The notes under the pieces were generated by a model. It had not been told where the DNA came from. It worked only from the letters and a program-made list of their open reading frames with translations, and ran no database searches. Positions 43,992 to 62,224 of a stretch of DNA of 64,000 bases are shown here, piece after piece. The position numbers were made by a program, and so were the translations under genes. Each line of letters opens with the position of its first letter. Position 1 is the stretch's first letter. The DNA lies in NCBI RefSeq assembly GCF_056746865.1, contig NZ_CM163382.1; one strand, 5' to 3'.

Positions 43992-45029
43992 ATGTTTTCC
44001 GCATTGCGCCACCGTACCGCTGCCCTGGCGCTCGGCGTATGCTTTATTCTCCCCGTACACGCCTCGTCATCTAAACCTGGCGATTTTGCTAATACTCAGG
44101 CACGACATATTGCTACTTTCTTTCCGGGACGCATGACCGGAACTCCAGCAGAAATGTTATCTGCCGATTATATTCGCCAACAGTTTCAGCAAATGGGTTA
44201 TCGCAGTGATATTCGGACATTTAATAGTCGGTATATTTATACCGCCCGCGATAATCGCAAGAGCTGGCATAACGTGACGGGAAGTACGGTGATTGCCGCT
44301 CATGAAGGCAAAGCGCCGCAGCAGATCATCATTATGGCGCATCTGGATACTTACGCCCCGCTGAGCGATGCTGACGCCGATGCCAATCTCGGCGGGCTGA
44401 CGTTACAAGGAATGGATGATAACGCCGCAGGTTTAGGTGTCATGCTGGAATTGGCAGAACGCCTGAAAAATACGCCTACCGAGTATGGTATTCGATTTGT
44501 GGCGACCAGTGGTGAAGAGGAAGGGAAATTAGGTGCTGAGAATTTACTCAAGCGGATGAGTGACACCGAAAAGAAAAATACGCTGCTGGTGATTAATCTC
44601 GATAACTTAATTGTTGGCGATAAATTGTATTTCAACAGCGGCGTAAAAACCCCTGAAGCAGTAAGGAAATTAACGCGCGACAGGGCGCTGGCAATTGCGC
44701 GTAGTCATGGAATTGCCGCAACGACCAATCCGGGTTTGAATAAAAATTATCCGAAGGGTACTGGCTGTTGTAATGACGCCGAAGTTTTCGACAAAGCCGG
44801 TATTGCCGTACTTTCGGTAGAAGCAACAAATTGGAATCTTGGGAATAAGGATGGTTATCAGCAACGCGCAAAAACAGCTGCATTCCCTGCGGGAAATAGC
44901 TGGCATGACGTAAGACTGGATAATCAACAACATATTGATAAGGCACTTCCAGGAAGAATAGAACGTCGCTGCCGTGATGTTATGCGGATAATGCTACCGC
45001 TGGTGAAGGAGCTGGCGAAGGCGTCTTGA
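43992..45029 (+). CDS. iap: alkaline phosphatase isozyme conversion aminopeptidase
   Basis: 345 aa with signal peptide and M28-type peptidase features; classic neighbour of the E. coli CRISPR array. Confidence 0.9.
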   Translation: MFSALRHRTAALALGVCFILPVHASSSKPGDFANTQARHIATFFPGRMTGTPAEMLSADYIRQQFQQMGYRSDIRTFNSRYIYTARDNRKSWHNVTGSTVIAAHEGKAPQQIIIMAHLDTYAPLSDADADANLGGLTLQGMDDNAAGLGVMLELAERLKNTPTEYGIRFVATSGEEEGKLGAENLLKRMSDTEKKNTLLVINLDNLIVGDKLYFNSGVKTPEAVRKLTRDRALAIARSHGIAATTNPGLNKNYPKGTGCCNDAEVFDKAGIAVLSVEATNWNLGNKDGYQQRAKTAAFPAGNSWHDVRLDNQQHIDKALPGRIERRCRDVMRIMLPLVKELAKAS

Positions 45030-45049
45030 TGGGTTTGAAAATAGGAGCT

Positions 45050-46176
45050 GGGAGTTCTACCGCAGGGGCGGGGAACTCCAAGTGATGTCCATCATCGCAT
45101 CCAGTGCGTCCGGTTTATCCCCGCTGACGCGGGGAACACACATGAATGTCGGTTCAGACCGTGTTTTTACCCGGTTTATCCCCGCTGGCGCGGGGAACAC
45201 TGCCTCGGCGGCGGCTCTGCGCAACCGCGAAACGGTTTATCCCCGCTGGCGCGGGGAACACGTTAAACCGTGATGATCAGCAAAAGCTATTTCCGGTTTA
45301 TCTCCGCTGACGCGGGGAACACGTCAATAGGCGGCGTCCCGTAGCCGTCCCCTTCGGTTTATCCCCGCTGGCGCGGGGAACACTTGAAATGGTCCAGCAC
45401 TGCGACCGTCGGCCCCGGTTTATCCCCGCTGGCGCGGGGAACACGCTGGTGGCGCGGGCAAACGGAACAATCCCGCCGGTTTATCCCCGCTGGCGCGGGG
45501 AACACGCTAACCTATAACACGGAAAATCACACGCTAACGGTTTATCCCCGCTGGCGCGGGGAACACGGCCATTCCCCCAAGCAGACGCAGGAAGTTAACG
45601 GTTTATCCCCGCTGGCGCGGGGAACACCTGGATTTCACCTCAGCAAATGCTGGATGTGGCGGTTTATCCCCGCTGGCGCGGGGAACACCACCCCTGATAT
45701 TTTTGCCACCGTGGTTACTCCGGTTTATCCCCGCTGGCGCGGGGAACACAGAAATCAAACTCAGCGTGCAAATGGGGTAGCCGGTTTATCCCCGCTGGCG
45801 CGGGGAACACTTGCGTTATTTCTATCTGGTGAGTCGCGGCACCGGTTTATCCCCGCTGGCGCGGGGAACACGTATTTTTTATCGTCGCATGAGTCGCGGT
45901 AACCGGTTTATCCCCGCTGGCGCGGGGAACACTTCTGCCGCGCCAGCAAACGTATCGGCGGTCACGGTTTATCCCCGCTGGCGCGGGGAACACCCCAGGC
46001 CAAGCATTATATCCTGTGCGTCGTTCGGTTTATCCCCGCTGGCGCGGGGAACACACCAAGAAGCTGACGAATCAGCCCGACACGCACGGTTTATCCCCGC
46101 TGGCGCGGGGAACACCCAGTTTCATATGAGCCGCCGCGCTGGATCATCGGTTTATCCCCGCTGGCGCGGGGAACAC
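45050..46176 (-). CRISPR. type I-E CRISPR array: 18 full 29-bp repeats plus one degenerate terminal repeat, 18 spacers of 32 bp
   Basis: repeat cggtttatccccgctggcgcggggaacac at exact 61-bp period starting 45111 through 46148; variants at 45111 and 45294; degenerate copy 45050-45078; leader on the cas2 side. Confidence 0.97.
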
Positions 46177-46272
46177 ACTAAGCATACATAACTGTTTTTA
46201 AACAAATTTATTCCGCATCAACAATCTACCAACTAAATTAAAACATTTCCTTATTTTTAAAGAACAGATAAC
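46177..46272 (-). promoter_or_regulatory. CRISPR leader
   Basis: AT-rich ~95 bp between last repeat and cas2 stop. Confidence 0.6.
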
Positions 46273-47482
<1,210 letters not shown>

Positions 47483-47486
<4 letters not shown>

Positions 47487-48133
47487 GCCTCTGCTCCGGG
47501 TTTGATCAGCATCAGACCACAGCCGAACGCGCGGCTTTTGCCATACCCCTGGCTCAGACGTTGCAGAAATAACCCGGGATCGGTGACCGTAAGCATCCCC
47601 GTATAATCCACGCTACTGAACTGGATCAGTTGCCGGGAGTTTTCCCGCCACAGTTGCTGTTGTCGGTAGGCATCAACCGAGGTATCCAGCAGTGTAAAAC
47701 CGCTTCTCTCCCCCTGCGCTGCCAGCCAGTCCAGCGCCGCCTGTTGTTGATGCAACCAGACATCACTTCCTTCCGCCTGCCCCCTCACCTGCCGTTTCGC
47801 CTCCATCAGCAGATCGTGGCGCTTGCCCGCTTTACAGATTGTTGGATTCGCCCGCAGGTTGAAACAAAGTTGTTGTCCGGTACGCAGCTCGGGCACAAAT
47901 GACCGGCATTCGATGGTGAACGTTTCACTTTCTGCCGGGCGTTCCTGCGACAGTACAAAAAAGCGAAACGCGCCCTGGAGTTCTTCCCGACGATAAAGAA
48001 ATTGCCTTTCTTTGCCGCCAGGGAAGAGATCCCACAGCCACTGATGCATCACATATTCCCCGCGATCCACCAGATGCAGCAACTGCGCAGGCGAAAGCTG
48101 GCCGGTATGTAAGGTTATTCTTGAGAGGTACAT
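47483..48133 (-). CDS. cas6e: Cas6e (CasE) crRNA endoribonuclease, divergent I-E variant
   Basis: 216 aa from MYLSRITLHTG with RBS GGAGGA; conserved MYLS N-terminus, FNLRANP and C-terminal GKSRAFGCGL. Confidence 0.8.
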
Positions 48134-48837
48134 GGTTCCTCCTTGCTGAGCCACGGCCCCTGATTGACGGTGCGTTCCCCAAACAACCATTGCTGACGAT
48201 TTAAAGGAACATCCCGGCGGCGCAATATTTTGCTCGCGACCAGGCCGTCGTGCTCCCCTTCCCACCAGCATTCATCCTGAAGTTTCGGGAGTGCGATTTT
48301 CAGGTCGTGGAAATGCTCCTGATACTGGTGATATGCGTTACGTAAAACATCAGACGCGTTGCCTTCAAGCAGTAACGGCGCAAGTGGTAATGCCAGCGGA
48401 TGACTTTTTCGCCCCAGATAAAGCGGAAAAACTGGATGGCGTAAACCGCCCTGCAACTGTTCGAGGCTGTAAGGCGCATCGGCTGTTGTTGCCACCGCCA
48501 CCATCCACCAGGCGTCGGTGTAGTAGTCGCGCCGGGAGATAATCGCGCTCAGAAGATCAGGGTCGCTCAACTCTTCGCGACGGCTGAAATAACGCGCTTT
48601 ACGCACCTCTTTTGGCATCTGGATTGTGTGATAATCCCGTGCCCAGCGCGGGTTACGGCTGGCGCAAACCACCAGTGAATAGTGGCGGTTAAACACGTTT
48701 AATCGTTCGGTATCATCACGCCGAATCCCTACCCCGGCAGCCAGCAGCCCCAGCAATGCTGAGCGCGAAGGCAGTTCATGGGTATGACGCACTTCGCCCG
48801 CTCCAAACAAACATTTCTCAACGTCTACTGAAGTCCA
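48115..48837 (-). pseudogene. cas5e: cas5e (casD) lacking its 5-prime end
   Basis: frame reads ...HELPSRSALLGLLAAGVGIRRDD (Cas5 glycine-rich motif) but hits a stop at 48838-48840 with no ATG; upstream is AT-rich island DNA. Confidence 0.65.
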
Positions 48838-48969
48838 TCAAATCCACGAATATCAAGCCTTTCAGCCATTTTCATAGCTTATTAACGTCTACTCACAACT
48901 ACCAGAATCTACACACAGAAGTGTATAGTAATGCGTATAGGACAAAATTTATTTTTTGGAGCTATACAC

Positions 48970-50184
48970 ATGCTGCTTTCAGACCTTGCTATCAGGCGCG
49001 CGAAGCCGAAAGAAAAGGCTTATACACTCAATGACGGTAACGGGCTTTCGTTACTCATTGAGCCGAACGGCTCGAAAGGGTGGCGACTACGTTACAGATT
49101 TGCAGGAAAGCCCAAAATGTTGTCGTTGGGCGTGTACCCTGATGTGTCTCTGTCTGATGCCAGAGCGGCAAGGGATGAGGCTAAAAGGCTTCTTGCTGGT
49201 GGTATAAATCCAAGTGAGGCCAGAAAAGCTCAAAAGCGAGAACAGGCGAGCAAATTTGGCAATACTTTTGAGGGTATCGCTCGCGAATGGTATGAAAAGC
49301 GGATCGACAGGTGGTCATCGTCATACGCCGAGGAAATGATCGAGACGTTTGAAAAAGACGTTTTTCCGTACATTGGCGGCAGGCCGATCGCAGAAATTAA
49401 GCCAATGGAGTTGCTTGCGGTTCTCTCCCGTCTTAATGACCGTGGGGCGACCGAAAAATTGCGTAAGGTTCGCCAGCGATGCGGCGAGGTGTTCCGGTAC
49501 GCAATCATCACCGGACGCGCTGAATATAACCCCGCACCAGATCTGGCAAGCGCATTTGCTCCACACAAAAAAGAGCATTATGCCTATTTGAAGGCCGACG
49601 AACTGCCGGAATTTTTCCGCGTTCTTAATACGTACACCGGAAGCCAGATCGTCAAGCTGGGTATGCGATTATTGATTCTGACAGGGCTCCGGCCAGGGGA
49701 ATTACGACAGGCAGAATGGCAGGAGATCGATTTTGATAATCGTTTGTGGGAAGTGCCTAAAGAACGAATGAAGATGCGCCGTCCTCATTGTGTGCCGCTT
49801 TCAGAACAGGCGATCGCTATTCTGGAACAGTTAAAACACATGACGGGGCAGTATCAGTTTATTTTCCCTGGTCGAATCCAGCACAGTAAGCCGATGAGTG
49901 AAATGGCGATGAACGTGCTTATTCGTCGTATTGGCTATTCTGGGCGCGTTACTGGTCATGGGTTCCGGCACACGATGAGCACGATTTTACATGAGCAGGG
50001 CTATAACACCGCGTGGATAGAAACGCAGCTTGCACACGTTGATAAGAACTCAATTCGTGGCACGTACAATCATGCGCAATATCTGGACGGGCGGCGCGAG
50101 ATGCTCCAGTGGTACGCCGACTATATGGACTCACTGGAACAGGGCGGCAACGTGGTGCATGGCAAGTTCGGAAAATGTGGATGA
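48970..50184 (+). CDS. int: tyrosine recombinase, P4/CP4-57-type integrase
   Basis: 404 aa from MLLSDLAIRRAK; N-terminal arm-binding-like domain; C-terminal catalytic GHGFRHT and RGTYNHAQY. Confidence 0.9.
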   Translation: MLLSDLAIRRAKPKEKAYTLNDGNGLSLLIEPNGSKGWRLRYRFAGKPKMLSLGVYPDVSLSDARAARDEAKRLLAGGINPSEARKAQKREQASKFGNTFEGIAREWYEKRIDRWSSSYAEEMIETFEKDVFPYIGGRPIAEIKPMELLAVLSRLNDRGATEKLRKVRQRCGEVFRYAIITGRAEYNPAPDLASAFAPHKKEHYAYLKADELPEFFRVLNTYTGSQIVKLGMRLLILTGLRPGELRQAEWQEIDFDNRLWEVPKERMKMRRPHCVPLSEQAIAILEQLKHMTGQYQFIFPGRIQHSKPMSEMAMNVLIRRIGYSGRVTGHGFRHTMSTILHEQGYNTAWIETQLAHVDKNSIRGTYNHAQYLDGRREMLQWYADYMDSLEQGGNVVHGKFGKCG

Positions 50185-50312
50185 CTGGTTGAGTATACAG
50201 TAGTAGACTTTGAGCGACGAAAGAAAAAGCTGTGTCTAGGGTCGCTCCCGAAAAACCGTATACCTCGACGGGCTGGCACAGCCACTACAGTAGAGGACGC
50301 TGAGGTGTGCGT

Positions 50313-51110
50313 ATGATTGATATTCATGCCGAATTAAACGAATACAAAAAAGATTTTATTTCTTTACGTGAATTTCTTGAGGTCGTGCTTAAGGTCGCTG
50401 GTGATGATTATGATGTTTCAGATCTCATAACTTGGATACTCAGGAGAATAAGCGGAGAACATATCCGCCTGTACACAGTAAATGAATTTAAGCTGTTGGA
50501 ATCTTTTTGTAACCCGTATCGGGATGAATTTGATTATGATGTTCTTTATAGAAATCTGGATGCGGTTCGGAAACATGGTTGTTTACCTGGTGAGAGGGAT
50601 GAAAATGGTTTTCTGGTGTCCGGTTATTGGGAAGATCCCGAATTTGAGAACATTGGATTTATAAGGGGTGAAATTTTCGCAATTTTTCCCGATGTCCTTG
50701 ACGCGTTAACGAAGCTGGAAGGCGCTAACTCTTCTGAAAATGACGAGGTACAAGGACGCGATATTGAAAAGAAAGAGTTGCGTACAGAGGATGATTTATT
50801 ATCCCAAATCGCAATGCTGGAAAGAGAAAACGCAGAGTTAAGGGCAAGGATAGAGCAGTTAGAGCAAGAGCGCCCGATACACTTATATAAATACTGGGAT
50901 AAAGACCCATTAGCTAAGGCTATTGAGATTAGAAACAGAGAGTGGGCCAATTACGATCCAGAAAATGATTTTGCCACCAGGGGAAATCAAGAAGCGATAA
51001 CTAGGGAGCTTAAGCAGTGGGGGGCAAGTAATGCTCTTGCAACGCTCATAGAGAGGACTGCCTGCCCTATTAACCGAGACAACAGCCAAAAGAACGCAAA
51101 GCCGGATTAA
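50313..51110 (+). CDS. hypothetical protein (island cargo, unknown function)
   Basis: 265 aa from MIDIHAELNEYKK with RBS gagg; acidic, central coiled-coil-like segment (AMLERENAELRARIEQLEQE); no recognisable motifs. Confidence 0.6.
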   Translation: MIDIHAELNEYKKDFISLREFLEVVLKVAGDDYDVSDLITWILRRISGEHIRLYTVNEFKLLESFCNPYRDEFDYDVLYRNLDAVRKHGCLPGERDENGFLVSGYWEDPEFENIGFIRGEIFAIFPDVLDALTKLEGANSSENDEVQGRDIEKKELRTEDDLLSQIAMLERENAELRARIEQLEQERPIHLYKYWDKDPLAKAIEIRNREWANYDPENDFATRGNQEAITRELKQWGASNALATLIERTACPINRDNSQKNAKPD

Positions 51111-51125
51111 CGCACCATACCGCAT

Positions 51126-51270
51126 ACCCTGAGGGTGATTTACTGTTACCCTGAGGGTATTTTTTTATCTTCCCCGTCAATTTTACCATCACCCTTAGGG
51201 TAGATTTCCTCCCGATTACCATCACCCTTAGGGTTAATTTCCTTCCGGTAACCATTAGGCCTGAGGGTAT
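51126..51270. repeat. five copies of palindrome CCCT(G/T)AGGG within ~33-bp tandem repeats
   Basis: ccctgaggg 51127-51135 and 51149-51157; cccttaggg 51192-51200 and 51225-51233; cctgaggg 51260-51267; 33-bp units at 51184 and 51217. Confidence 0.6.
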
Positions 51271-51337
51271 GAAAATATTCGTTATTTCTGTGCCATGATT
51301 ACCTCGTCAAATTGAGTAGACGTTATGAGGTAAATAG

Positions 51338-51535
51338 ATGTCAAATACGCTTATTCGTTTAACAGAAGTTCAGCGTAGAACTGGATATAGCAAGGCATGG
51401 ATTTATCGCCTTATGGGGCAAGGTAAATTTCCTGCATCAGTTAAAATTGGCTCGCGAGCGATTGCTTTCGTTGAAAGTGAAATTGACGAATGGATCAATC
51501 AGCGTATTGCCGAATCACGCGGAACGGCTGCCTGA
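51338..51535 (+). CDS. alpA: AlpA/Vis-family HTH regulator (excisionase-like)
   Basis: 65 aa MSNTLIRLTEVQRRTGYSKAWIYRLMGQGKFPASVKIGSRAIAFVESEIDEWI; classic AlpA pattern. Confidence 0.8.
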   Translation: MSNTLIRLTEVQRRTGYSKAWIYRLMGQGKFPASVKIGSRAIAFVESEIDEWINQRIAESRGTAA

Positions 51536-51610
51536 TTAAATAGCTACGGGTTATTGCCCAAGCTATCCACTAGCAAATAAAAAGTAACTTAATTCGATAG
51601 CGGAGTTTTT

Positions 51611-52435
51611 ATGAAACTGCGAAAAACGCCCGTACAGGGGCAGGGCTTTGTTCGGCCTGAAAACCAGAATCTGCAAAATTTCGGCGAAATTATCCCGGTT
51701 ATTTCCGGCGTTATTGGCGGGCGTGAAGCCGCTGTTGTTAGCGCAAAAGCGTTACACAAAGCGTTGGGCGTGGGAAAAGACTTCTCTACATGGATCACTG
51801 ATCGTATCTCTGAATATGACTTCACCATTGGGTACGATTACTCAGTCCATAAAACAATTTCCCCAAATTTGGGGAAAAGCCCGAATGGCGAGGCTTACAG
51901 CAAGATTAAGCACTCTGGCAGACCCGGTAAAGACTATCTGTTAAGTGTCGGAATGGCGAAAGAACTGGCAATGATCGAACGCACCGAACAGGGCCGCGCC
52001 GTTCGTCAGTACTTCATCAAATGCGAGGAGGAGCTACACAAGGTAGCGCCTGTACGTTCCGCAGCGTTACGCCGGGAACTGAAAGCCCGTATCACCGTAG
52101 CCAGCTACTTTAAGCCAATGTGTGCCGCGCTGGAGGCGTACCGGGCTGAACTGGGTAAAAACACGCTCCAGCACCACTACACCACGGAAGCCAATATGCT
52201 GGCGCGTATCGTGCTGGGTGGCATGAATGCAAAACAGTGGGCGCAGGCGAACGGCATCACAGGCGAACCACGCGACCACATGAGCACGCTGCAGCTTGAG
52301 CACCTTTCTTACCTTGAGCAGAGCAATATCACGCTGATTGAGTTAGGCCAGGACTACCACCAGCGGAAAGCTGAATTAATTCGTCTTTCGCAACGCTGGT
52401 TAGCCCGCCGCATGGAGGTGAGCAGCCATGCGTAA
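51611..52435 (+). CDS. phage antirepressor-like protein (AntA/Rha-type)
   Basis: 274 aa; motif DFSTWITDRISEYDF...DYLLSVGMAKELAMI...RQYFI resembles antirepressor N-terminal domains. Confidence 0.55.
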   Translation: MKLRKTPVQGQGFVRPENQNLQNFGEIIPVISGVIGGREAAVVSAKALHKALGVGKDFSTWITDRISEYDFTIGYDYSVHKTISPNLGKSPNGEAYSKIKHSGRPGKDYLLSVGMAKELAMIERTEQGRAVRQYFIKCEEELHKVAPVRSAALRRELKARITVASYFKPMCAALEAYRAELGKNTLQHHYTTEANMLARIVLGGMNAKQWAQANGITGEPRDHMSTLQLEHLSYLEQSNITLIELGQDYHQRKAELIRLSQRWLARRMEVSSHA

Positions 52436-52985
52436 ACCTGTCTTTTATGCCGGTCGCACTGAAATCTCTGTCATTAAATTCGATGACATTCAGGTGCGCA
52501 TAGTGAGTATCAACGGCGAGCCGTGGTTTGTTGGCGCTGATGTGTGTGCCGCGCTGGAAATCAGCAATGTTACTGATGCCGTTTCAGTTCTGGATAACGA
52601 TGAGGTAATGACCCTAGCTTTAACCGAGGGTCATTCCGGTAAGCGTGGTGGTGCCAGAAGCTGGAATGTTGTCTCTGAATCAGGTTTCTACAAACTGATC
52701 GCCCGCAGCCGTAAAGCTTCCACACCAGGCACATTTGCGCACCGTTTCAGTAACTGGGTATTCCGCGAGGTGATTCCTTCAATCCGCAAAACGGGGGGTT
52801 ATGGTGTTCCGTTTGCCATGCTGAATGATTTCAGTAAACGTCAGGCTGCATATCAACAGGAAGCCAGCAAACGCGGTTACAGGTTACAGCAATGCAAAGA
52901 GGCAAAAGATGCACTGGAACGAGAAGAGCGGGCGCTATGGCGTAAATATCAGCCTGATTTTCTGGAGGGTGAAAGCAATGTGTAA
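52428..52985 (+). CDS. Bro-N domain protein (antirepressor family)
   Basis: 185 aa; VIKFDDIQVRIVSINGEPWFVGADVCAALEISNVTDAVSVLDNDE matches Bro-N signature; overlaps upstream gene. Confidence 0.7.
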   Translation: MRKPVFYAGRTEISVIKFDDIQVRIVSINGEPWFVGADVCAALEISNVTDAVSVLDNDEVMTLALTEGHSGKRGGARSWNVVSESGFYKLIARSRKASTPGTFAHRFSNWVFREVIPSIRKTGGYGVPFAMLNDFSKRQAAYQQEASKRGYRLQQCKEAKDALEREERALWRKYQPDFLEGESNV

Positions 52986-53153
52986 CGATCCGAACGTTAC
53001 AGAAAGAAAAAGCGCCCCGTTGCTGGATAACAGGCAAAACAAAGGCGACCGGGATAGGTCGCCAGTGGGAACAAAGGAAATCAAACGCATCGCCAACAAT
53101 GCCAGATTTGCGGCTGGTGGGCAATGTGATCAGTGTGCTGGCTTGCTGGTGGG

Positions 53154-53351
53154 CTATTCCTGCTCTTTAGCATCGCCATACTGCGATGTTTTCCAGGTAT
53201 GCGATTCCATTTTTGTGCGCCTGTACTCTTTTAAGAACTTCTCAAGGACAAACGCACATGGCGCAAATCTTTCCTGTTCTTGTTCGCTTACCGCATTTTT
53301 GCGTTGTTTTTTCCTGGATGAGGATAATTTCTTTAATGATTTGTCAGTCAT
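53154..53351 (-). CDS. small basic protein, paralog of the adjacent 65-aa ORF
   Basis: 65 aa; shares C-terminal ...AFVLEKF...AKEQE pattern with neighbour; weak RBS. Confidence 0.4.
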   Translation of the reverse strand: MTDKSLKKLSSSRKKQRKNAVSEQEQERFAPCAFVLEKFLKEYRRTKMESHTWKTSQYGDAKEQE

Positions 53352-53408
53352 CGTAGATACCTGTAACCCTGTGCGCCACAGTTCACCGCACCACGGCGCT
53401 GGTGATGG

Positions 53409-53606
53409 TTACTCCTGCTCTTTGGCCTTCCGGCGCTGTTCATATTTTAATTTGCGTCCACAGGCATCTAAGACCCATGCGGAAAAATTAGCACTAGGAT
53501 TAGTTAATTTTTCTTGTTCAACACTGGCATCAATCCCATCTATAAGCTCGTGCGGGAATCGAATATTTTTCTTTGCTGATTTGTTGTTTGTGTTTCCGCT
53601 AGACAT
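53409..53606 (-). CDS. small ribbon-helix-helix-like DNA-binding protein
   Basis: 65 aa; RBS gaggtg; KKNIRFPHELIDGIDASV resembles Arc/CopG beta-strand plus helix. Confidence 0.5.
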   Translation of the reverse strand: MSSGNTNNKSAKKNIRFPHELIDGIDASVEQEKLTNPSANFSAWVLDACGRKLKYEQRRKAKEQE

Positions 53607-53635
53607 TGGTACACCTCACTTAAATGGATTTGATG

Positions 53636-53711
53636 GGCGCACACAATACAGCAAAAAAAGTGAGAAGTTAAGTATTGACATGTGCGCACACATGATTTTA
53701 ATCTGTGCGCA
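53636..53711. promoter_or_regulatory. divergent promoter/operator region with three GTGCGCA(C) palindromes
   Basis: ggcgcac 53636-53642, gtgcgcac 53682-53689, gtgcgca 53705-53711; TTGACA 53675-53680 with TTTAAT 53697-53702. Confidence 0.45.
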
Positions 53712-53810
53712 AGTTTGGGTTGCATTGCTCAAATTAAGCAACGCCCCGCAGTGCTCGCAACACATGCAGGGCGTCTAACCACCAACGATAGAAAGCGTAT
53801 CGAGGTAGCT

Positions 53811-54014
53811 ATGTTAAATCATACCACACACCCGCAAGGGCGGGACTCGCACAACCTGAATAAATACATCTGGCGTTTTATCGCCCTGAGCACCGCACAA
53901 CCACGCGTAATACACATCGAGGCCGCCAGCGAACAGGAAGCCCGTCAGCAATCCCCGGCTGGCTGCGTGATGGTATTTACTGCCCGCATCCGTCAGGGGG
54001 AATACTATGCGTGA
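53811..54014 (+). CDS. small hypothetical protein (possibly Icd-like)
   Basis: 67 aa from MLNHTTHPQG with RBS gagg; YIWRFIALSTAQPRVIHIEAASEQEARQQ; assignment by weak recall. Confidence 0.4.
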   Translation: MLNHTTHPQGRDSHNLNKYIWRFIALSTAQPRVIHIEAASEQEARQQSPAGCVMVFTARIRQGEYYA

Positions 54015-54264
54015 TGAACGATTTATTCTTCTGGAGCAAAAATTCAGTGAAGCGCCAAAAAATGAAATTGATGCTCTTTTGCATATCGCGAATATGCTAA
54101 AAGTAGCAACGTTCCTTATAGTTTCGAATCTGGAGCATGAAACGGCGTTAGATATACTGAACAGTGCTGTCGATTATTCTGAATATATTGCCGAGGATAA
54201 ATACAGGCAATTACCAGATTTGTTAGCCCATAAATATAAAGAAGAACCTCACACCGGGAAATAA
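54007..54264 (+). CDS. hypothetical protein
   Basis: 85-aa ORF overlapping neighbours on both sides (translational coupling). Confidence 0.5.
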   Translation: MRDERFILLEQKFSEAPKNEIDALLHIANMLKVATFLIVSNLEHETALDILNSAVDYSEYIAEDKYRQLPDLLAHKYKEEPHTGK

Positions 54265-54266
54265 AC

Positions 54267-54569
54267 ATGAAGAAGATTAAATTTACTGGCTTAAATGCCA
54301 GCGGACAGACTCACCCGAAAATCAGGATCGGGGATATTTTCCGGGATAAATATGGTGACAGCGTGGTTATTAATTCCGTGTATGAACGGCACATTACATA
54401 CCGCCGCGCAGGGTACGACTATGACTGTGTGATGCCCGTTCATCAGTTCCGGCGTGATTTTTCACTGGTATGTGCAGCACCACGCAGTAAGCCCACCAGT
54501 AAAGAGAAAGCACGGGCAAATATTCAGGTAATAAAGAACATGATTAACGCATTCAGGGGCAAGAAATGA
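54267..54569 (+). CDS. hypothetical protein
   Basis: 100-aa ORF; stop overlaps start of the 708-aa gene. Confidence 0.5.
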   Translation: MKKIKFTGLNASGQTHPKIRIGDIFRDKYGDSVVINSVYERHITYRRAGYDYDCVMPVHQFRRDFSLVCAAPRSKPTSKEKARANIQVIKNMINAFRGKK

Positions 54570-56692
54570 AACGCGCACCGAATTTAAAGCACCAGCCGAA
54601 AGACAAAATGACGGAGGTGATTATCTTTGCGGGTAGTGATGCCTGGGCACATGCGAAAGAGTGGAGCGAATGGGCCGGAAAGCATATTGCGGCAGATGAT
54701 ACACATCCAGTTATTCTTGGACCGGAACAACTGGCGAGTCTGGCAGACACGCAAATCATCGACAAAGGGCGCTATTACGTGCGCGTTTATCGTGCTGGTG
54801 AAATATCAGAGCAGCACCTTACACAGATAGCGACACTGCTTGCAGTGGCGGGTGTGAAGGAGGCGCGTTGCTACCGCAGCTTTGTTGATCAGCAGCCGGA
54901 GGACTGGACACCGCGCATGGCTGGACTGAAGGATGATGCGGAACGCGGTAACAGTCTGGTGATCAACCTTCCGGCGAAGACAAATTTCACCGGAAATTAT
55001 GATGACGAATTAAAGCCTCGTGTTGAAAGTCGCGTCGATGGTGTTTTCTGGGTAACGCCCAAAGTGGACAAGCAGTCAGGCGAAATTATCCGGCCTGAGA
55101 CGTGGTTATGTTCTCCGCTTGAACTACTGGGAACAGGAACAATCGGCAAAGAGCATTACCGCGTGATGCGCTGGAAAAAACCAGCAAACCATGAGGTCAT
55201 TACAATGGCGGTCCCGTGCGGAGGCATTGGTGACCGTGACGGCTGGCGGTTGCTGAAAGACCACGGCCTTAACGTGACGACCAACGGCAAATACAGGGCT
55301 ATCTTGGCTGACTGGATGCAGTTAAGCGGAAACCATGAGGAATGGCAGTTAAGCACAACAACGGGGTGGCATTTTGGTGCGTACATCATGCCGGATGGTT
55401 CGATCATCGGTGAATCAGAGAAACCCATCCTGTTTACCGGAAAAACTGCCGCTGTTAATGGCTATTCCGTGGCGGGAACAGCGGAGGGCTGGCGCGATAC
55501 CGTGGCACGGCTGGCTGGTGGTAATCCGTCCATGATGCTGGGTGTGGCGGTATCGCTATCTGCACCATTAATCGGGCTGGTGGGTGCTGACGGCTTCGGG
55601 GTTCATCTTTTTGAGCAATCATCAGCAGGTAAAACCACCACACAGAACATTGCATCAAGTTTATGGGGAGAGCCGGACGCGCAACGGCTGACCTGGTACG
55701 GAACGGCGTTAGGTATCGCCAACGAGGCCGAAGCACATAATGACGGGCTGTTACCCCTGGATGAAATAGGCCAGGCCGGAAACGCACGGGAGGTGTCCAC
55801 GTCAGCCTATACGCTGTTTAACGGTTCCGGGAAATTACAGGGGGCGAAGGACGGCGGCAACAGGGAGATAAAACACTGGCGTACGGTGGCAATCAGCACC
55901 GGAGAAATGGACGTTGAAACATTCCTCAAAACGGAAGGGATAAAAATTAAAGCGGGACAGCTTGTCCGTCTGCTTAACGTACCGATGGAAAAGGCCTCGC
56001 AGTTTCACGAATACAGCACCGGAAAGGCGCACGCAGACGCGTTAAAAGATGCCTGGACAGAAAATCACGGGGCGGCAGGTCGTGAGTGGGTTAAATGGCT
56101 GGCAGGCCACCAGCAGGAGGCAAAGGACGCGGTAAGGGCATGTCGCGAGCGGTGGCGCAACCTGATACCGGAGAGCTACGGCGAGCAGGTTCACCGTGTG
56201 GGGGAAAGATTCGCCGTACTGGAGGCCGCGCTTGTGCTTTCCGGTCATGTTACAGGCTGGGATGTTCAGGCGTGCCGTGATGCAGTTCAGCATAACTTTA
56301 ATGCCTGGGTGAAGGAATTCGGCACGGGCAACAGGGAATTTAAACAGATGGTTGAACAGGCTGAGGCGTTTTTGTCGTCGTTCGGGTTCAGTCGATACCT
56401 TCCCTATCCAAACAGCGACGAGCGTGATTTACCGATTAAAGACCTTGCCGGATACAGAAAGGGGAGTATCAGAAACGAAGATGACGAGTTCCGTTTTTAC
56501 ACGTTCCCGCATGTGTTTGAGGGTGAGATAGCACAGGGATTTAATCCGTCTCACTTTGCCCGCGCGTTGAGTGCAGCCGGAATGCTGGAAGCGGGAGGCG
56601 ACCGCCGTTACAAGAAAAAGGCGCTCGGCAGGATTGGCGGGAAGCAACATATTTTTTACGTGCTGATGTTCCAGCCTGAAGCAGAAGATTAA
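54566..56692 (+). CDS. putative replication initiator (primase/helicase-like P-loop protein)
   Basis: 708 aa; Walker-A-like FEQSSAGKTT; directly upstream of iteron cluster and SSB gene. Confidence 0.65.
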   Translation: MKRAPNLKHQPKDKMTEVIIFAGSDAWAHAKEWSEWAGKHIAADDTHPVILGPEQLASLADTQIIDKGRYYVRVYRAGEISEQHLTQIATLLAVAGVKEARCYRSFVDQQPEDWTPRMAGLKDDAERGNSLVINLPAKTNFTGNYDDELKPRVESRVDGVFWVTPKVDKQSGEIIRPETWLCSPLELLGTGTIGKEHYRVMRWKKPANHEVITMAVPCGGIGDRDGWRLLKDHGLNVTTNGKYRAILADWMQLSGNHEEWQLSTTTGWHFGAYIMPDGSIIGESEKPILFTGKTAAVNGYSVAGTAEGWRDTVARLAGGNPSMMLGVAVSLSAPLIGLVGADGFGVHLFEQSSAGKTTTQNIASSLWGEPDAQRLTWYGTALGIANEAEAHNDGLLPLDEIGQAGNAREVSTSAYTLFNGSGKLQGAKDGGNREIKHWRTVAISTGEMDVETFLKTEGIKIKAGQLVRLLNVPMEKASQFHEYSTGKAHADALKDAWTENHGAAGREWVKWLAGHQQEAKDAVRACRERWRNLIPESYGEQVHRVGERFAVLEAALVLSGHVTGWDVQACRDAVQHNFNAWVKEFGTGNREFKQMVEQAEAFLSSFGFSRYLPYPNSDERDLPIKDLAGYRKGSIRNEDDEFRFYTFPHVFEGEIAQGFNPSHFARALSAAGMLEAGGDRRYKKKALGRIGGKQHIFYVLMFQPEAED

Positions 56693-56715
56693 CTTCCCTG
56701 TGTGAGGTAAAAAGT

Positions 56716-56840
56716 TGCGGGTTATGCGGGTTATCCTGTGCATAAGTTAATTAACTGAATGATTAAAAAGGAAATTAATAACCCGCACGTAACCCGCAAA
56801 ACGGCAGTTATAACCCGCAAATGTGCGATTGTAACCCGCA
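56716..56840. repeat. iteron cluster TAACCCGCA (putative island origin of replication)
   Basis: direct copies at 56779, 56790, 56811, 56832 (spacing 11/21/21 bp) plus inverted tandem gcgggttat at 56717-56734. Confidence 0.65.
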
Positions 56841-56902
56841 AAATTTCACTGTAAGAGTGTAAACAAGCGTAACTATCACGTTAAAACCGGAGAACAAACA
56901 GC

Positions 56903-57328
56903 ATGACGGCGCAAATATCAGCTTACGGGCGGCTGGTGGCTGACCCGCAGTTAAAGACCACCAGCAAGGGCACACAAATGGCGATGGCGAGTATGGCGGT
57001 CCCCCTTCCATGCAATCAGACAGATGACGGAACGGCGACGATGTGGTTATCCGTCCTGGCGTTTGGCAGACAGGCTGACGCACTGGCAAAACACCACAAA
57101 GGCGAACTGGTGAGCGTGGCCGGTAACATGCAGGTGAGCTGGTGGACGGGCCAGAACGGCGAAACGAGGCAGGGATGGCAGGTTATCGCAGACAGCGTAA
57201 TCAGTGCGCGAACGGCGCGACCGGGCGGCAAAAAAGGCCAGCAGGGGCAGGCTACTGATGCACTGAACAGGGCAAAGCAACAGACAGGCCAGCACGATGA
57301 TCCGTACGGGGACGGGATACCGTTTTAA
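56903..57328 (+). CDS. ssb: single-stranded DNA-binding protein (SSB-like)
   Basis: 141 aa; OB-fold-like N-terminus, Gly/Gln-rich linker, C-terminal acidic tail DDPYGDGIPF. Confidence 0.7.
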   Translation: MTAQISAYGRLVADPQLKTTSKGTQMAMASMAVPLPCNQTDDGTATMWLSVLAFGRQADALAKHHKGELVSVAGNMQVSWWTGQNGETRQGWQVIADSVISARTARPGGKKGQQGQATDALNRAKQQTGQHDDPYGDGIPF

Positions 57329-57411
57329 TTCACAACAGCGAACAGAGTAATTACCCAGTGCGCCGTAAAGCCCCGTCCTTCAGGTCGGGGATATAAGGCG
57401 CGGTTTTCCAC

Positions 57412-57828
57412 CTAACTAGGTGTTTGCTGTTGTTCAATGTATTGGCGGATGATGGATATTGGCGCACCTCCGCAGCTACTGGCAAAATAGCTGGGACTCC
57501 ATAAAACGCCTTTGTAGTAATACCTGACTGCAATATCTGGTCGATCTCGTCGCAATAATCTACTCGATACGCCCTTGAGACTGTTCACCAGGGTGGATAT
57601 CGCCAATTTGGGAGGATAGTTAATTAGCAGGTGAACGTGATCTCGTTCTCCATCCATTTCAACCAGTTCAGCTTCAAAATCAGCACATACACTTGAAAAG
57701 TAAGTGCGTAGTTTTTCTATTGCGTCATGGTCAAAAATCTGGCGTCGGTACTTGGTAACAAAGACCAGGTGAACGTGCATCAGGAAGACACAGTGCCTTC
57801 CACGTCGGATATCGGTTTCTTTTTTCAT
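57412..57828 (-). CDS. tnpA: IS200/IS605 Y1 (HUH) transposase TnpA
   Basis: 138 aa from MKKETDIRRG; HUH motif HVHLL and catalytic Tyr region VLWSPSYFASSCGG. Confidence 0.85.
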   Translation of the reverse strand: MKKETDIRRGRHCVFLMHVHLVFVTKYRRQIFDHDAIEKLRTYFSSVCADFEAELVEMDGERDHVHLLINYPPKLAISTLVNSLKGVSSRLLRRDRPDIAVRYYYKGVLWSPSYFASSCGGAPISIIRQYIEQQQTPS

Positions 57829-57850
57829 AGGCCAAAGTATAATTTGGCAT

Positions 57851-59059
57851 ATGAAACGACTACAAGCTTTCAAATTCCAGTTAAGACCAAATGGAAAACA
57901 GGAGCGTGAAATGAGGCGCTTCGCGGGCGCATGTCGTTTCGTTTTCAATCGTGCTCTGGCGCTTCAGAATGAGAATCATGAGGCCGGGAACAAATATATT
58001 TCTTATGCAAAGATGACTTCCTGGCTGGTTGAATGGAAAAATGCTACTGAAACGCAATGGCTTAAAGATTCTCCCTCACAGCCATTGCAGCAGTCACTGA
58101 AAGACCTTGAGCGAGCCTACAAAAATTTCTTTCAGAAGCGTGCCGCTTTTCCCCGATTCAAAAAGCGGGGACAGCATGATGCATTCCGCTATCCGCAGGG
58201 TGTTAAGCTCGATCAGGAAAACAGCCGTATTTTTCTGCCGAAACTGGGCTGGATGCGCTACCGGAACAGCCGTCAGGTCACGGGTGTTGTGAAAAATGTC
58301 ACTGTCAGCCAGTCCTGCGGTAAGTGGTACATCAGTATTCAGACAGAAAGTGAAGTATCAACTCCGGTTCACCCTTCAGCATTAATGGTCGGGCTGGATG
58401 CTGGCGTGGCTAAACTCGCCACGCTGTCAGATGGCACGGTCTTTGAGCCTGTAAACAGTTTTCATAAAAACCAGAAGAAGCTGGCGAGACTTCAGCGCCA
58501 GTTAAGCCGCAAGGTTAAATTCAGCAACAACTGGCAGAAGCAGAAACGCAAAATACAGCGACTGCATTCCCGTATCGCAAATATCCGCAGGGACTACCTT
58601 CACAAAGTCACAACGACCATCAGCAAAAACCACGCAATGATAGTCATTGAGGATTTGAAGGTCAGCAACATGTCAAAGTCAGCCTCGGGTACGGTCAGCC
58701 AGCCGGGGCGCAATGTCCGGGCAAAATCAGGTTTAAACCGTTCGATACTGGATCAGGGCTGGTATGAAATGCGCCGTCAGCTTGAGTACAAGCAGCTCTG
58801 GTGTGGCGGTCAGGTGCTTGCTGTTCCGCCAGCGTACACAAGCCAGCGTTGCGCGTGCTGTGGTCATACAGCGAAAGAAAATCGCCTGTCACAAAGTCAA
58901 TTCAGATGCCAGGTATGTGGATATACAGCGAACGCCGATGTAAACGGCGCTCGTAACATTTTAGCGGCGGGGCACGCCGTTCTTGCCTGTGGAGGGATGG
59001 TGCAGTCAGGCCGCCCGTTGAAGCAGGAACCCACCGAAATGATTCAGGCGACAGCCTGA
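57851..59059 (+). CDS. tnpB: TnpB (OrfB) RuvC-like RNA-guided nuclease
   Basis: 402 aa; N-terminus [17 protein letters not shown]; RuvC region [15 protein letters not shown]; zinc finger [12 protein letters not shown]...CQVCG; [10 protein letters not shown]. Confidence 0.85.
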
Positions 59060-59118
59060 ACGTAGCAGGAATCCACGTCCTTCAGGGCGTGGAGGATGTC
59101 AAATATCAATGCGACGAC
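58900..59118 (+). ncRNA. predicted TnpB omega-RNA (tnpB 3-prime end, right-end hairpin, flanking guide)
   Basis: inferred from IS200/IS605 architecture only; right-end hairpin 59073-59092; guide would be about 16 nt from 59103. Confidence 0.3.
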
Positions 59119-59258
59119 TGGAATGTTCCAGGAAGGCACAGAGGCCACCGAAGCAACCGGATAATTTAGAAGACCTGAAACGGTCGCTTAAACGCACTGA
59201 AAAAGAAATGGGGATAGATGGGATCGGGAAATCAGTATGGCGTAACTACCAGAAGTAA
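59109..59258 (+). CDS. possible small basic protein (49 aa)
   Basis: ATG at 59109 just right of the inferred IS end; MRRLECSRKAQRPPKQPDNLEDLKR...; followed by strong terminator; no clear RBS. Confidence 0.25.
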   Translation: MRRLECSRKAQRPPKQPDNLEDLKRSLKRTEKEMGIDGIGKSVWRNYQK

Positions 59259-59264
59259 GCACAG

Positions 59265-59289
59265 AGCCGGAGCAATCCGGCTTTTTTTT
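59265..59289 (+). terminator. rho-independent terminator
   Basis: agccgga-gcaa-tccggct stem followed by T8. Confidence 0.7.
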
Positions 59290-59389
59290 GGCTGAAATCA
59301 ATCAATCTGTTTTTGTGATAGAAATATATTTATCTACCACTTTTTTCGATCAATAATGTGCATAATTTAGTCATTAAGAGGAAATTGCT

Positions 59390-59596
59390 GTGAATTGTAT
59401 TAACGACCTGAACACAGGCGATGTCAGAGGTGGTTCCGTTCATCTGGATGCACAGACCGTGATGCGCCTTAAGCAGTACAGAATCGACCATGTGAACAAT
59501 CACCCTGATCAGCCATTACCAGGCGTGGCGCAGATTGTCAGACATGCCGTAAACGCCTGGCTTAATCAGAATGGTTTTGCATCGGGGGGTGAGTAA
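59390..59596 (+). CDS. small hypothetical protein, first gene of cargo operon
   Basis: 68 aa; GTG start with RBS aagagg 8 nt upstream; AT-rich promoter-like region upstream. Confidence 0.45.
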   Translation: MNCINDLNTGDVRGGSVHLDAQTVMRLKQYRIDHVNNHPDQPLPGVAQIVRHAVNAWLNQNGFASGGE

Positions 59597-59692
59597 TGAA
59601 TCGCTGGTACAGCATCAAAGCAGAGGGACGCCAATGTTATCTAACTCAGGTTTTATGAATTCTGACTCCCGATTCAAAATAGGAGGTTACTA

Positions 59693-62224
59693 ATGCCAGT
59701 CGTACCAACAGTATCCGGACGTCAGGTTGAGAGCCGTGGAGTTCAGTCAGCAGGCTTGCAGACGTTTTCTCAGCCAGGTATTGGTGATGCTTTTGTTCGG
59801 GCAGGGGCAGAGGCAATTGATGTTTTTGGTCAGGCAAAACAGCGTGCCAATATTGCCTTGATTCAGGAGGCATCCCTTAAACTCAGTCAGATAGGCAGTG
59901 ATCTGCTGAATAATCCTGAAACAGGATTGCTTAACCTGAAAGGGAAAAATGCTATTGGAAAAGGCCATGAGTATACACAGCAGTTTGATGCTCAGATCGA
60001 ACAACTGGCTATGTCGCTGCCGGATGAACAGGCTCGTAATGCTTTCATGCAGCAGGCGCAGCAGCAGCGTATTCAGTTCGCTACGCAGGCCGGGAGGTAC
60101 GAGATAGGGCAAATAAATGCCTACGAAGAAGGCCAGTTTCAGGCGACACTGCTGAATAATGGTAAAAATGCCTCAGCATTATATGGCGACAACGCAGCAT
60201 ACATATTGGCTAATACGCAAACTTTCCAGCAAATTGAGGATTACGGTATTGCGCATGGCTGGAGCGACGAGCAAATCCAGGCCAAGAAAATCGAGTTTAA
60301 AGAAGCAACAGCAAAAGCAACTGCTCAAAATGCTATTGGAGCAAACTATCTTCAGGTAAGACAGCAAAATGGCGAGTTAAGCGATACTGCTGCTGGATCT
60401 CGCCGTGCTGTAGCAGATAGTGGCTCTTCCGATCGTACCCGCGGTATACGCAACAATAACCCCGGCAATCTTGAATACAGCAAAACTAATCCGTGGATTG
60501 GGCAGACTGGTGATGATGGTCGCTTTGCCAAATTCGAAACCCCTGAACACGGTATTCGCGCGCTTGGTCGCAATTTGCTGTCGTATCAGCGTCAGGGTTA
60601 TGACACCATCAGCGAAATAATTAATCGCTGGGCACCGGCCAGTGATGATAATAAAACTGATGCTTATATACGGGCAGTATGTGCTCAGCTCGGTGTAACT
60701 CCTGACCAGCCGCTTGACGCATCAAATCCTGACACACTGAAATCTCTGTGCAAAGCAATTATTCATCATGAGCAAGGCAGTCAGCCGTACAGTGATCAGC
60801 AATTGGCCGCTGGCGTTAGTGCCGCACTGGGGCTTTCTCAGCTACCGACAAAAAATAAACGTTATACCGGTGTAGCCTGGTTCGATGCTTTAAGTGAATC
60901 AGATCAGGCCAGCGTGTTGCGACAGACGGATGCATTAGCCAGACAGCAGCAGGCTGAATATAGAACGATGCTCGAAAGCCGGGTTCGCGATGCAACGGCT
61001 GCGTATATGCGTGGCGTTGAATTTCCTAACCCGCCTGGTGAGGGTGAGTTCATTGCTGCTTATGGTGTCAGAGAAGGAAACCTGCGATATACCGAGTTCA
61101 GAAATTTGCAGATCGCCGGACAGTATATAGGCTCTTTCCGCAACATGCCGACAAGCAGCATTACCGCATATGTTGAGCAATTACGCCCGGATACTGGTGA
61201 GACAGGGGAGGGGTATGCGTCTCGTGCGGAGTTATTCGACCGGGTATCGGCGGCAGCCACGAAGGTAATAACCCAGAGGCAGAATAATCCGTTTAGTGCA
61301 GCGGTGGAAATCGGAGCCTATAAGCCGATCACCAGCAACAACCCTGACGACATCACTGCCGAGGTGGCTAACCGTTTCTCGTCGCAGGAAAGCTTACGCG
61401 CGTTGGGAATTAATGCCCCACTCCTCAACAGTGAAGAGGCGGCTGCGCTGGCACAGCAGGTGCGCGGCACTCAGAACGTTGACCAGACAATTAAACTGTT
61501 GCAGAGCATGGGGGAGAAGCTGCCTGCGCCAGCAATACGGCAGGTGGCATCTGTAATTGCTCCGAACAGTGCGGCAACAGCCTATTCTGCGCTGCTGCTG
61601 GGCACGCCGGATAACCAGTACGACAACACCAGGCCGACGATCCCATATAGTCAGTTCATCGGGTATAAGCCGACGATGAACAAGTACGACGTTGCAAAGG
61701 TTATTCTTTCCGGCGACCAACTACTGAATCCGACGAAGGCCATGAAGAATGCGGGCATAACTCCGGTACAGTTGCCGAGCGAAGATAAGATGAAAGACGC
61801 TTTCGACGAACAGGTAGGTAATGCATTTGCCCGTAACCCGCAGTTACGCCAGATCAGTTATAGCCTTTTCAAAGCCGCTTACGCAGGAATAGCTTATCAA
61901 TCTGGTGATGCCTCTACGGTAAGAACCAGTATGCCTGATACAGACATTGTAGCTGATGCCGTGAAGTATGCTACTGGCGGTATATACAATGGTTTTAATG
62001 GCGGCGACGTTGTAATGCCTTTTGGCATGGATAAATCTACTTTCAAAGATCGCTATACCACATCTGCGAAACAAGCACTGAAAGATGCCGGACTTAACGT
62101 AAATGCAGTGTCAAATTTCACGCCAGTTAATATCGGCAATAACCGGTATCGGCTTGTAAATGGTAGCGGACGCTGGGCAACAGATCCCAGAACCAATAAA
62201 GCTATTGTCGTGAGGGTTGAATAA
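59693..62224 (+). CDS. large hypothetical protein (843 aa), Q/A-rich
   Basis: strong RBS aggagg; conserved-looking central block IRNNNPGNLEYSKTNPWIGQ...FAKFETPEHGIRALGRNLLSYQRQGYDTISEIINRWAP; no P-loop; function unknown. Confidence 0.7.
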   Translation: MPVVPTVSGRQVESRGVQSAGLQTFSQPGIGDAFVRAGAEAIDVFGQAKQRANIALIQEASLKLSQIGSDLLNNPETGLLNLKGKNAIGKGHEYTQQFDAQIEQLAMSLPDEQARNAFMQQAQQQRIQFATQAGRYEIGQINAYEEGQFQATLLNNGKNASALYGDNAAYILANTQTFQQIEDYGIAHGWSDEQIQAKKIEFKEATAKATAQNAIGANYLQVRQQNGELSDTAAGSRRAVADSGSSDRTRGIRNNNPGNLEYSKTNPWIGQTGDDGRFAKFETPEHGIRALGRNLLSYQRQGYDTISEIINRWAPASDDNKTDAYIRAVCAQLGVTPDQPLDASNPDTLKSLCKAIIHHEQGSQPYSDQQLAAGVSAALGLSQLPTKNKRYTGVAWFDALSESDQASVLRQTDALARQQQAEYRTMLESRVRDATAAYMRGVEFPNPPGEGEFIAAYGVREGNLRYTEFRNLQIAGQYIGSFRNMPTSSITAYVEQLRPDTGETGEGYASRAELFDRVSAAATKVITQRQNNPFSAAVEIGAYKPITSNNPDDITAEVANRFSSQESLRALGINAPLLNSEEAAALAQQVRGTQNVDQTIKLLQSMGEKLPAPAIRQVASVIAPNSAATAYSALLLGTPDNQYDNTRPTIPYSQFIGYKPTMNKYDVAKVILSGDQLLNPTKAMKNAGITPVQLPSEDKMKDAFDEQVGNAFARNPQLRQISYSLFKAAYAGIAYQSGDASTVRTSMPDTDIVADAVKYATGGIYNGFNGGDVVMPFGMDKSTFKDRYTTSAKQALKDAGLNVNAVSNFTPVNIGNNRYRLVNGSGRWATDPRTNKAIVVRVE

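Follow-up and report, generated by a model that had tools for sequence, protein, structure and literature searches.

A glyU-type island at a secondary attachment site in cas5e probably splits a type I-E CRISPR-cas operon of Escherichia coli

The stretch of 64,000 nucleotides analyzed here (assembly GCF_056746865.1, contig NZ_CM163382.1; hereafter "the window") contains a CRISPR locus of Escherichia coli, in which the gene cas5e is cut short by the integrase end of a mobile island, very probably as a result of off-target integration. The genes lie in the E. coli neighborhood cysC-cysN-cysD-iap-CRISPR1-cas2-cas1-cas6e-cas5e and are syntenic with those of strain 118UI (Table 1). Repeats of 29 nt and spacers of 32 nt adjoining cas2-cas1-cas6e near iap-cysD assign the system to type I-E; the CRISPR1 repeat at 45050-45078 is degenerate. 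From position 44000 to 48798, the window is 100% identical to 118UI, every spacer included. This strain is free of the island and possesses the full operon cas3-casA-casB-cas7e-cas5e-cas6e-cas1-cas2, with cas1 as the sole pseudogene, and supplied the comparison with island-free relatives proposed in a first-pass annotation of the stretch. Cas6e, described there as intact, matched TIGR01907 nearly over the entire profile (positions 1-207 of 208, 8.2e-87). In tblastn searches with the eight Cas proteins of 118UI (E≤1e-3), no match to Cas7, Cse2, Cse1, or Cas3 was obtained in the window, as the same annotation had stated. Of a complete Cascade and Cas3 gene set in one operon, the window holds only cas6e and the part of cas5e encoding residues 22-248.

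The adaptation module is incomplete, too, due to the TAA at codon 200 of cas1 (Y200*). The same stop is present in the 100% identical sequence of 118UI, where it is annotated as "internal stop." Because this island-free strain shares it, adaptation was most likely dead before the island arrived. The array is frozen, its spacers being identical to those of 118UI. None of the spacers matched the island, even with up to 7 mismatches, and an escape from self-targeting as the trigger of the event was rejected for this reason.

Table 1. Features of the CRISPR-cas locus and of the adjoining island (positions refer to the window; nt, nucleotides; aa, amino acids)
Feature	Position	Strand	Remarks
CRISPR1 array	45050..46176	+	19 repeats of 29 nt, 18 spacers of 32 nt
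CRISPR1 leader	46177-46272		Adjoins cas2
cas2e	46273..46566	-	Intact, 97 aa; tblastn 100% identity, residues 1-97
cas1e pseudogene	46563..47486	-	Codon 200 is TAA (46887-46889); TAT (Tyr) in strain ETEC1747
cas6e	47483..48133	-	Intact, 216 aa; 100% identical to cas6e of 118UI
cas5e, 3' fragment	48115..48798	-	Codons 22-248 and stop codon; codons 1-21 absent
Crossover core CTTCGCC	48792..48798	+	Common to cas5e codons 21-23, attP of the island, and 3' end of the tRNA-Gly gene glyU
tRNA-Gly 3' end, CTTCGCCCGCTCCA	48792..48805	+	Acceptor stem and CCA; borne by the island at its integrase-proximal end
Island left arm, core to int (attP P' arm)	48799..48969	+	Supplies TTG-TTT-GGA-GCG
Island body	48799..64000, runs off the window	+	Total island about 20 kb
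Tyrosine integrase	48970..50184	+	404 aa; arm-type DNA-binding N-terminal domain; transcribed away from cas5e
AlpA-like helix-turn-helix protein	51338..51535	+	65 aa; candidate excisionase or regulator
DUF927 primase-helicase	54566-56692		Island
SSB (single-stranded DNA-binding protein)	56903-57328		Island
IS200/IS605-family insertion	57355..59102		In island; tnpA 57412-57870 (-), tnpB 57851-59059 (+)
phrog_992 protein	59693-62224		843 aa; island; next large open reading frame follows

Residues 22-248 of Cas5e map to positions 48798-48118 at 100% identity to 118UI (tblastn), and the match to TIGR01868 (casD_Cas5e) is limited to profile positions 20-228 of 230, with positions 1-19 absent. The 5' truncation claimed in the first-pass annotation is therefore real, and its extent can be corrected: 21 codons are lost, and the frame stays open through 13 island-derived codons until it is closed by a TGA at 48838-48840. 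The claim that a start codon is missing holds for ATG only, since TTG (48808-48810) and GTG (48790-48792) are present in frame. To the start of Cas5e, the island adds just the codons TTG-TTT-GGA-GCG, by which the gene is not restored. The lost residues 1-21 (MSQYLIFQLHGPMASWGVDAP) are the best-conserved part of the family and align with residues 1-21 of CasD of E. coli K-12 in the solved Cascade structure (chain 4qyz_J).

The break in cas5e falls on the attachment (att) core of the island. Identity to 118UI stops exactly at 48798, island homology starts at 48792, and the overlap of the two consists of exactly the 7 bp CTTCGCC. From this core onward, the island bears CTTCGCCCGCTCCA, which equals the last 14 nt of the annotated tRNA-Gly of strain SCU-105. 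The junction thus lies at the core of the island's own site (attP), next to an island-borne copy of the 3' end of its target. The coincidence of the break with the att core is accurate to the base and is not a chance pattern. As described before, the next gene is a divergently oriented integrase gene. Its product matches phrog_1 (5.9e-78) and, below the curated cut-off, PRK09692 (2.7e-98); the identical protein of other genomes carries the Pfam domains Arm-DNA-bind_3, Phage_int_M, and Phage_integrase. An arm-binding tyrosine integrase is therefore located at the island end directly beside the att junction. Among the best-ranked records listed from a deposited phage collection, no integrase exceeds 49% identity to it. 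A promoter and terminator scan of both strands of the junction (48100-49100) yielded nothing; it also missed any integrase promoter and is given little weight.

The usual bacterial target (attB) of this element is the tRNA-Gly gene glyU. It is this gene, located beside actS, that the island directly follows in SCU-105 and many further strains, and each of the 10 places shown for the identical 404-aa integrase in other genomes adjoins actS-glyU. Of 5,426 complete E. coli genomes, 78 contain the left arm of the island, at 79 places in total. Sixty of these places, all of those listed except one, are att sites of the tRNA-Gly type: 59 carry a tRNA-Gly annotation, and the 60th, part of a tandem array, borders on a tRNA-Gly fragment of 22 nt. 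The remaining one is cas5e, the sole non-tRNA site among the 61 placements examined (the other 18 records fall outside this set). Strain 08-00022, considered as a further case of a secondary site, was rejected, as its copy lies in a tandem array beside a 22-nt tRNA-Gly fragment. The junction of cas5e and island was found in one of the 5,426 complete genomes (ETEC1747). In the window, the canonical glyU site is not the one occupied, and no tRNA gene is present in its 64 kb. Because the target is cas5e and the window lacks a tRNA gene, the site is regarded as secondary. This element, a glyU-specific island, sits off-target, at a site with just the 7-bp core in common with the usual target. Neither this nor the cas1 stop that predates the island had been noticed in the first-pass annotation. 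At the far side of the canonical glyU insertion of SCU-105 (attR; locus L003 of the comparison set, 27145-27165), the tRNA 3' fragment is one C short (CTTCGCCGCTCCA compared with CTTCGCCCGCTCCA); the flank in locus L035 has the full sequence.

The other half of the operon can be followed in relatives. In ETEC1747, one side of the island meets cas5e(22-248); on the other side, CTTCGCC and cas5e codons 1-21 adjoin the island, and cas7e-casB-casA come next. This is a simple insertion, and ETEC1747 is the sole fully resolved genome with a junction between cas5e(22-248) and the integrase side. It carries the island twice (L002, L018): a copy at glyU with an intact integrase and, inverted and about 140 kb away, the cas5e copy, from which int, the next gene, and alpA are deleted. 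The occupied glyU site fits the use of a secondary site when the primary one is taken. For the window's own alleles, a chimeric open reading frame was predicted from cas5e codons 1-21 of 118UI and the right end of the SCU-105 island. It was matched exactly by a 154-aa protein in public assemblies, which is encoded directly downstream of cas3-cse1-cse2-cas7 in three contigs. The reciprocal junction (attR) with the same core is present in ETEC1747, L029, L030, and L031; in the window genome, it is outside the view. The end of the window corresponds to position 22445 of L003 (the SCU-105 locus), in which the island ends at 27155. Because the window thus ends about 4.7 kb before the predicted far end of the island, cas7, cse2, cse1, and cas3 are absent from it; to judge from the relatives, the effector genes are split off rather than deleted.

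The site has been used repeatedly. In the window, the cas flank is 100% of the 118UI type and the island arm 100% of the SCU-105 type, without any ETEC-type single-nucleotide polymorphism on either side. ETEC1747, L014, L016, and L017 combine another cas allele (96% identical to that of the window) with another island variant, which encodes a RepA-type helicase instead of the DUF927 protein and is 94% identical in the int region. Up to the core itself, the cas allele of the ETEC1747 type shares 99.9% identity with island-free genomes. L030 has a third cas allele, with 93-95% identity to the other two. In all, three alleles (118UI, ETEC1747, and L030 types) that are mutually 93-96% identical reach the core, and the first two match island-free genomes at 99.9-100%. 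These alignments place the junction at the same nucleotide in no fewer than three cas-allele backgrounds and with two variants of the island.

A different layout is found in the assembly GCA_046604685.1 (L029, L035), which has cas alleles of the 118UI type and the same cas1 stop. Here, the right end of the island is joined to cas5e(1-21)-cas7-...-cas3, and the neighbor of the island on the integrase side is an intact tRNA-Gly. Without an intervening island, cas5e(22-248) runs into the 3' end of the native tRNA-Gly and the yqeG flank. The product of this fusion is annotated with 230 aa, and its reading frame indicates ATT as the start codon. Because the cores of glyU and cas5e are mutually inverted in the chromosome, the arrangement is explained as an inversion of about 140 kb, which is one recombination step from either a simple cas5e insertion or a canonical glyU insertion. 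Since one relative shows such an inversion, we infer the far junction of the window genome from its other relatives.

Integrase-mediated, off-target integration of a satellite-like island of about 20 kb at a secondary att site in cas5e, rather than a deletion, is in our assessment the likely explanation for the locus, and it is probable to about the same degree or slightly less that the window genome carries a simple insertion. A glyU-targeting island with a tyrosine integrase, an AlpA-like regulator, and a DUF927 primase-helicase would have recombined at cas5e codons 21-23. The exchange was conservative, with only the 7-bp CTTCGCC common to the cas5e site and attP, and left the gene unrestored. 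The integrase side would retain cas5e(22-248)-cas6e-cas1-cas2 and the array; cas5e codons 1-21 together with cas7, cse2, cse1, and cas3 would have come to lie on the other side of the island, most likely directly at its far end. This end is expected near ~68,700 (~4.7 kb past the window) with the sequence TTGTTCC-CTTCGCC-GGGGGCATCGACGCC, after which the start of cas5e and then cas7 should come. Provided that both junctions lie in cis, cas5e would be reconstituted intact (GACGCA-CTTCGCC-GGGGGC) upon excision by Int and AlpA. One of the two options in the first-pass annotation was that a mobile element had entered cas5e and that the remaining operon genes lie beyond it; the att core, the tRNA-Gly fragment, and the reciprocal junction of the relatives, which adjoins cas7-cse2-cse1-cas3, bear this out.

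The consequences for the system are deduced from the gene layout. Cas5e without the first strand of its fold would be non-functional, and some 20 kb or more would separate cas5e-cas6e-cas1-cas2 from their promoter, which lies upstream of cse1. Because the N-terminal strand is lost, the promoter is separated, and the integrase is transcribed away from the cas genes, interference is presumably abolished and the processing of CRISPR RNA doubtful. The description of the array as functionally orphaned is plausible on these grounds.

Several points weigh against the off-target integration as set out above. The second junction of the window genome is unseen, as the far end of the island lies beyond the window, and within the same cas lineage GCA_046604685.1 represents the ~140-kb inversion and not a plain insertion. 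Outside the core, the similarity between the flanks of cas5e and glyU is weak (15 of 40 positions match, against a background of 9.7 ± 3.4); this background comprises only 15 sites, one of which scores as well as cas5e, and is too small a sample for a conclusion. An extended similarity to the glyU attB was considered as the reason for the choice of site and set aside. The core CTTCGCC has 17 copies in the window, which extrapolates to ~1,300 per genome. Because of this number, the repeated use of one site is not random among the core matches, and the reuse of one among ~1,300 sites (as extrapolated) is so far unexplained. Finally, the loss of Cas5e function and of cas6e expression is something that we infer.

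Among the other explanations, a rearranged genome comes closest. Here, too, the junction would be made by the integrase; the far end of the island would abut the native glyU flank, the rest of the operon would lie ~140 kb away, and CTTCGCC-(C)GCTCCAATTTATC followed by the glyU downstream flank (yqeG or ETT2 genes) would be expected at the far end. Such a layout could result from an inversion between the glyU att site and the cas5e site or from homologous recombination between two inverted island copies. GCA_046604685.1, with the same alleles and cas1 stop, does have the inverted layout, and the two inverted copies ~140 kb apart in ETEC1747 are a substrate for inversions. We nevertheless consider a rearrangement unlikely: it needs at least one extra step, the junction of cas5e(22-248) with the integrase side is the direct product of an ordinary attP × attB recombination and is absent from the inverted relative, and ETEC1747, the only fully resolved genome of the window's junction type, has a simple insertion. 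The second option of the first-pass annotation, a deletion of cas7, cse2, cse1, cas3, and the cas5e 5' end with the island at the deletion edge, would account for the lack of these genes in the window, and a later deletion may have occurred beyond it. The proposal is very improbable, because a break exactly at an att core with a tRNA-Gly fragment marks site-specific recombination rather than a deletion endpoint, cas3-cse1-cse2-cas7 have been kept in all relatives that show one junction type or the other, and the window stops ~4.7 kb short of the expected island end. An illegitimate, microhomology-driven recombination or an assembly artifact, in which the integrase had no part, might be suspected from the mere 7 bp shared and the weak flank similarity. 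It is hardly credible given that the breakpoint is the crossover core used at glyU, that both reciprocal junctions exist, and that assemblies made independently in different laboratories, both complete and draft, contain the same junction.

A further explanation accepts the integration and sees in cas5e a selected alternative target, by which the island disables the type I-E system as an anti-defense measure or forms a reversible switch of the "regulated gene integrity" kind. Multiple independent events that disrupt a domain without restoration, as found here, are what marks candidates for regulated gene integrity (PMC7192596). The recurrence at a single nucleotide in at least three cas backgrounds and with at least two island variants, despite an estimated ~1,300 cores per genome, speaks for selection, and so does the standing of cas5e as the only non-tRNA site among the examined placements in complete genomes. 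Moreover, int is intact, and the cores would be expected to rebuild cas5e exactly upon excision. On the other side, the junction is rare (one in 5,426 complete genomes), the spacers do not target the island, and the system was decaying, with cas1 already a pseudogene and an array identical to that of island-free relatives. The type I-E system of E. coli is normally silenced by H-NS, which leaves little to disable, and the cas5e copy of ETEC1747, without int, cannot excise by itself. That cas5e serves glyU-type satellite islands as an alternative att site when glyU is occupied, and thereby as a reversible, integrase-based anti-CRISPR device, is a doubtful proposition on this evidence. Rarity, the decayed host system, and the tRNA primary target favor a recurrent off-target site over regulated gene integrity. 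The biological impact of the off-target integration is probably small, with cas1 of the lineage already dead and type I-E normally silent.

The truncated gene is easily overlooked in annotations. Public annotations take the TTG or GTG start, giving a 231-aa protein (PGAP, ETEC1747) and a 225-aa protein. The entries WP_247179630.1 and WP_411367988.1, though N-terminally truncated or chimeric, are not flagged as pseudogenes and bear the name "type I-E CRISPR-associated protein Cas5/CasD." Since the gene passes as a normal Cas5/CasD of 225, 230, or 231 aa, CRISPR-typing surveys could score cas5e as intact. The TTG-start chimera of the window (231 aa) is absent from the protein collection. The 225-aa GTG-start protein is present there; the contigs shown for it are intact operons with point lesions and one insertion similar to an insertion sequence (IS), none with the junction of the window. 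Lesions in the first ~20 codons of cas5e were also seen in other strains: Trp16 is changed from TGG to TAG in L004 and L007, several Logan contigs have 1-nt frameshifts, and in L005 (GCA_046487035.1) a terminal sequence resembling that of an IS (...GGGGATCTCTCAG) lies 6 bp from the att core.

Apart from the IS region, the island body is 99.5-99.9% identical, from position 48792 on, to the 19.2-kb glyU island of SCU-105. Its genes encode the integrase, a 267-aa protein, AlpA, antirepressor-like proteins of the AntA and BRO-N types, an Icd-like protein, and DUF4222. The AlpA-like protein matches phrog_2790 and phrog_66 ("excisionase and transcriptional regulator"), and its orthologue has the Pfam domain Phage_AlpA. 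Two tandem 33-nt direct repeats (88% identical, 51183-51248) lie just 5' of its gene and could be regulatory or iteron-like. The IS200/IS605 element (NF033573, 3.7e-43; NF040570, 7.9e-117), whose tnpB is of the RNA-guided-nuclease type, stands in place of a ProQ/FinO region of ~1 kb in the SCU-105 copy, seen as an alignment gap. Int, AlpA, the DUF927 primase, and SSB are what a PICI-like or P4-like phage satellite might carry, and they occur alongside large open reading frames of the phrog_992 "head protein"/transglycosylase-like kind. These form a row of 843, 686, and 918 aa, followed by one of 104 aa (59693-64000, continued in L003 18138-25799). The first of them matches phrog_992 "head protein" and transglycosylase/endolysin-like families (4e-289), and the exact 843-aa protein was found in only four contigs, none with the IS605 insertion or the junction of the window. 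The large cargo frames gave no PADLOC and no NCBIfam match; a known defense system as cargo was rejected, as PADLOC yielded nothing. No hallmark genes of P4 were identified among the open reading frames scanned, psu, delta, and sid having had no dedicated search.

The apparent loss of the interference module is thus reinterpreted as an operon split by off-target integration, which illustrates the value of looking past the edge of a window. A specific, reusable secondary att site (CTTCGCC, cas5e codons 21-23) is documented for a family of glyU islands common in E. coli, and such integration events can seed a chromosomal inversion of ~140 kb. A limited literature search found no prior description of a cas5e attachment site.

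Among known systems, SopE-phi of Salmonella Typhi was found away from its usual target, the gene of tmRNA (transfer-messenger RNA), although its attL contains a fragment of tmRNA (Mageeney et al. 2020, PMC7192596). The island described here likewise carries a fragment of its canonical target, the 14-nt tRNA-Gly 3' end, at a non-canonical location, and as an off-target integration it disrupts the target gene without restoring it, by an integrase identical to the copies at the canonical site. Unlike in SopE-phi, the same off-target nucleotide was reused in several host backgrounds, and it is an effector gene of a CRISPR system that is disrupted. CRISPR-Cas systems are also inactivated by insertion sequences that transpose into cas genes (Nat Commun 2023, PMC10359306). 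As in these cases, a cas gene of the E. coli type I-E system has been broken up by a mobile element, with the presumed loss of interference; in contrast to transposition, a conservative tyrosine-integrase recombination at a defined core has introduced a 20-kb island and is in principle precisely reversible. In Streptococcus pyogenes, according to the article that cites the work, a prophage integrates into CRISPR repeats (Varble et al. 2021, cited in PMC10359306). There, too, as far as that citation describes it, an integrase-bearing element attaches inside a CRISPR-cas locus and immunity is lost, but the repeat is the regular attB and its use an adaptive strategy, whereas the regular attB of the present island is glyU and cas5e a rare secondary site. 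With the regulated gene integrity elements of comK, sigK, and mlrA, it shares the intact integrase beside the interrupted gene, the expected restoration upon excision, and independent events at one site; it differs in its tRNA gene as primary target, its very low frequency, and the lack of evidence here for regulated excision. Further counterparts are the glyU-associated, satellite-like islands of E. coli, which resemble phage-inducible chromosomal islands (PICI-like) or belong to the P4-integrase family and have int, AlpA, antirepressor-like and Icd-like proteins, the DUF927 primase-helicase, and SSB in common with it. To the copies at glyU it is 99.5-99.9% identical; it differs in location. 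The event is a rare but recurrent off-target integration and no new kind of system.

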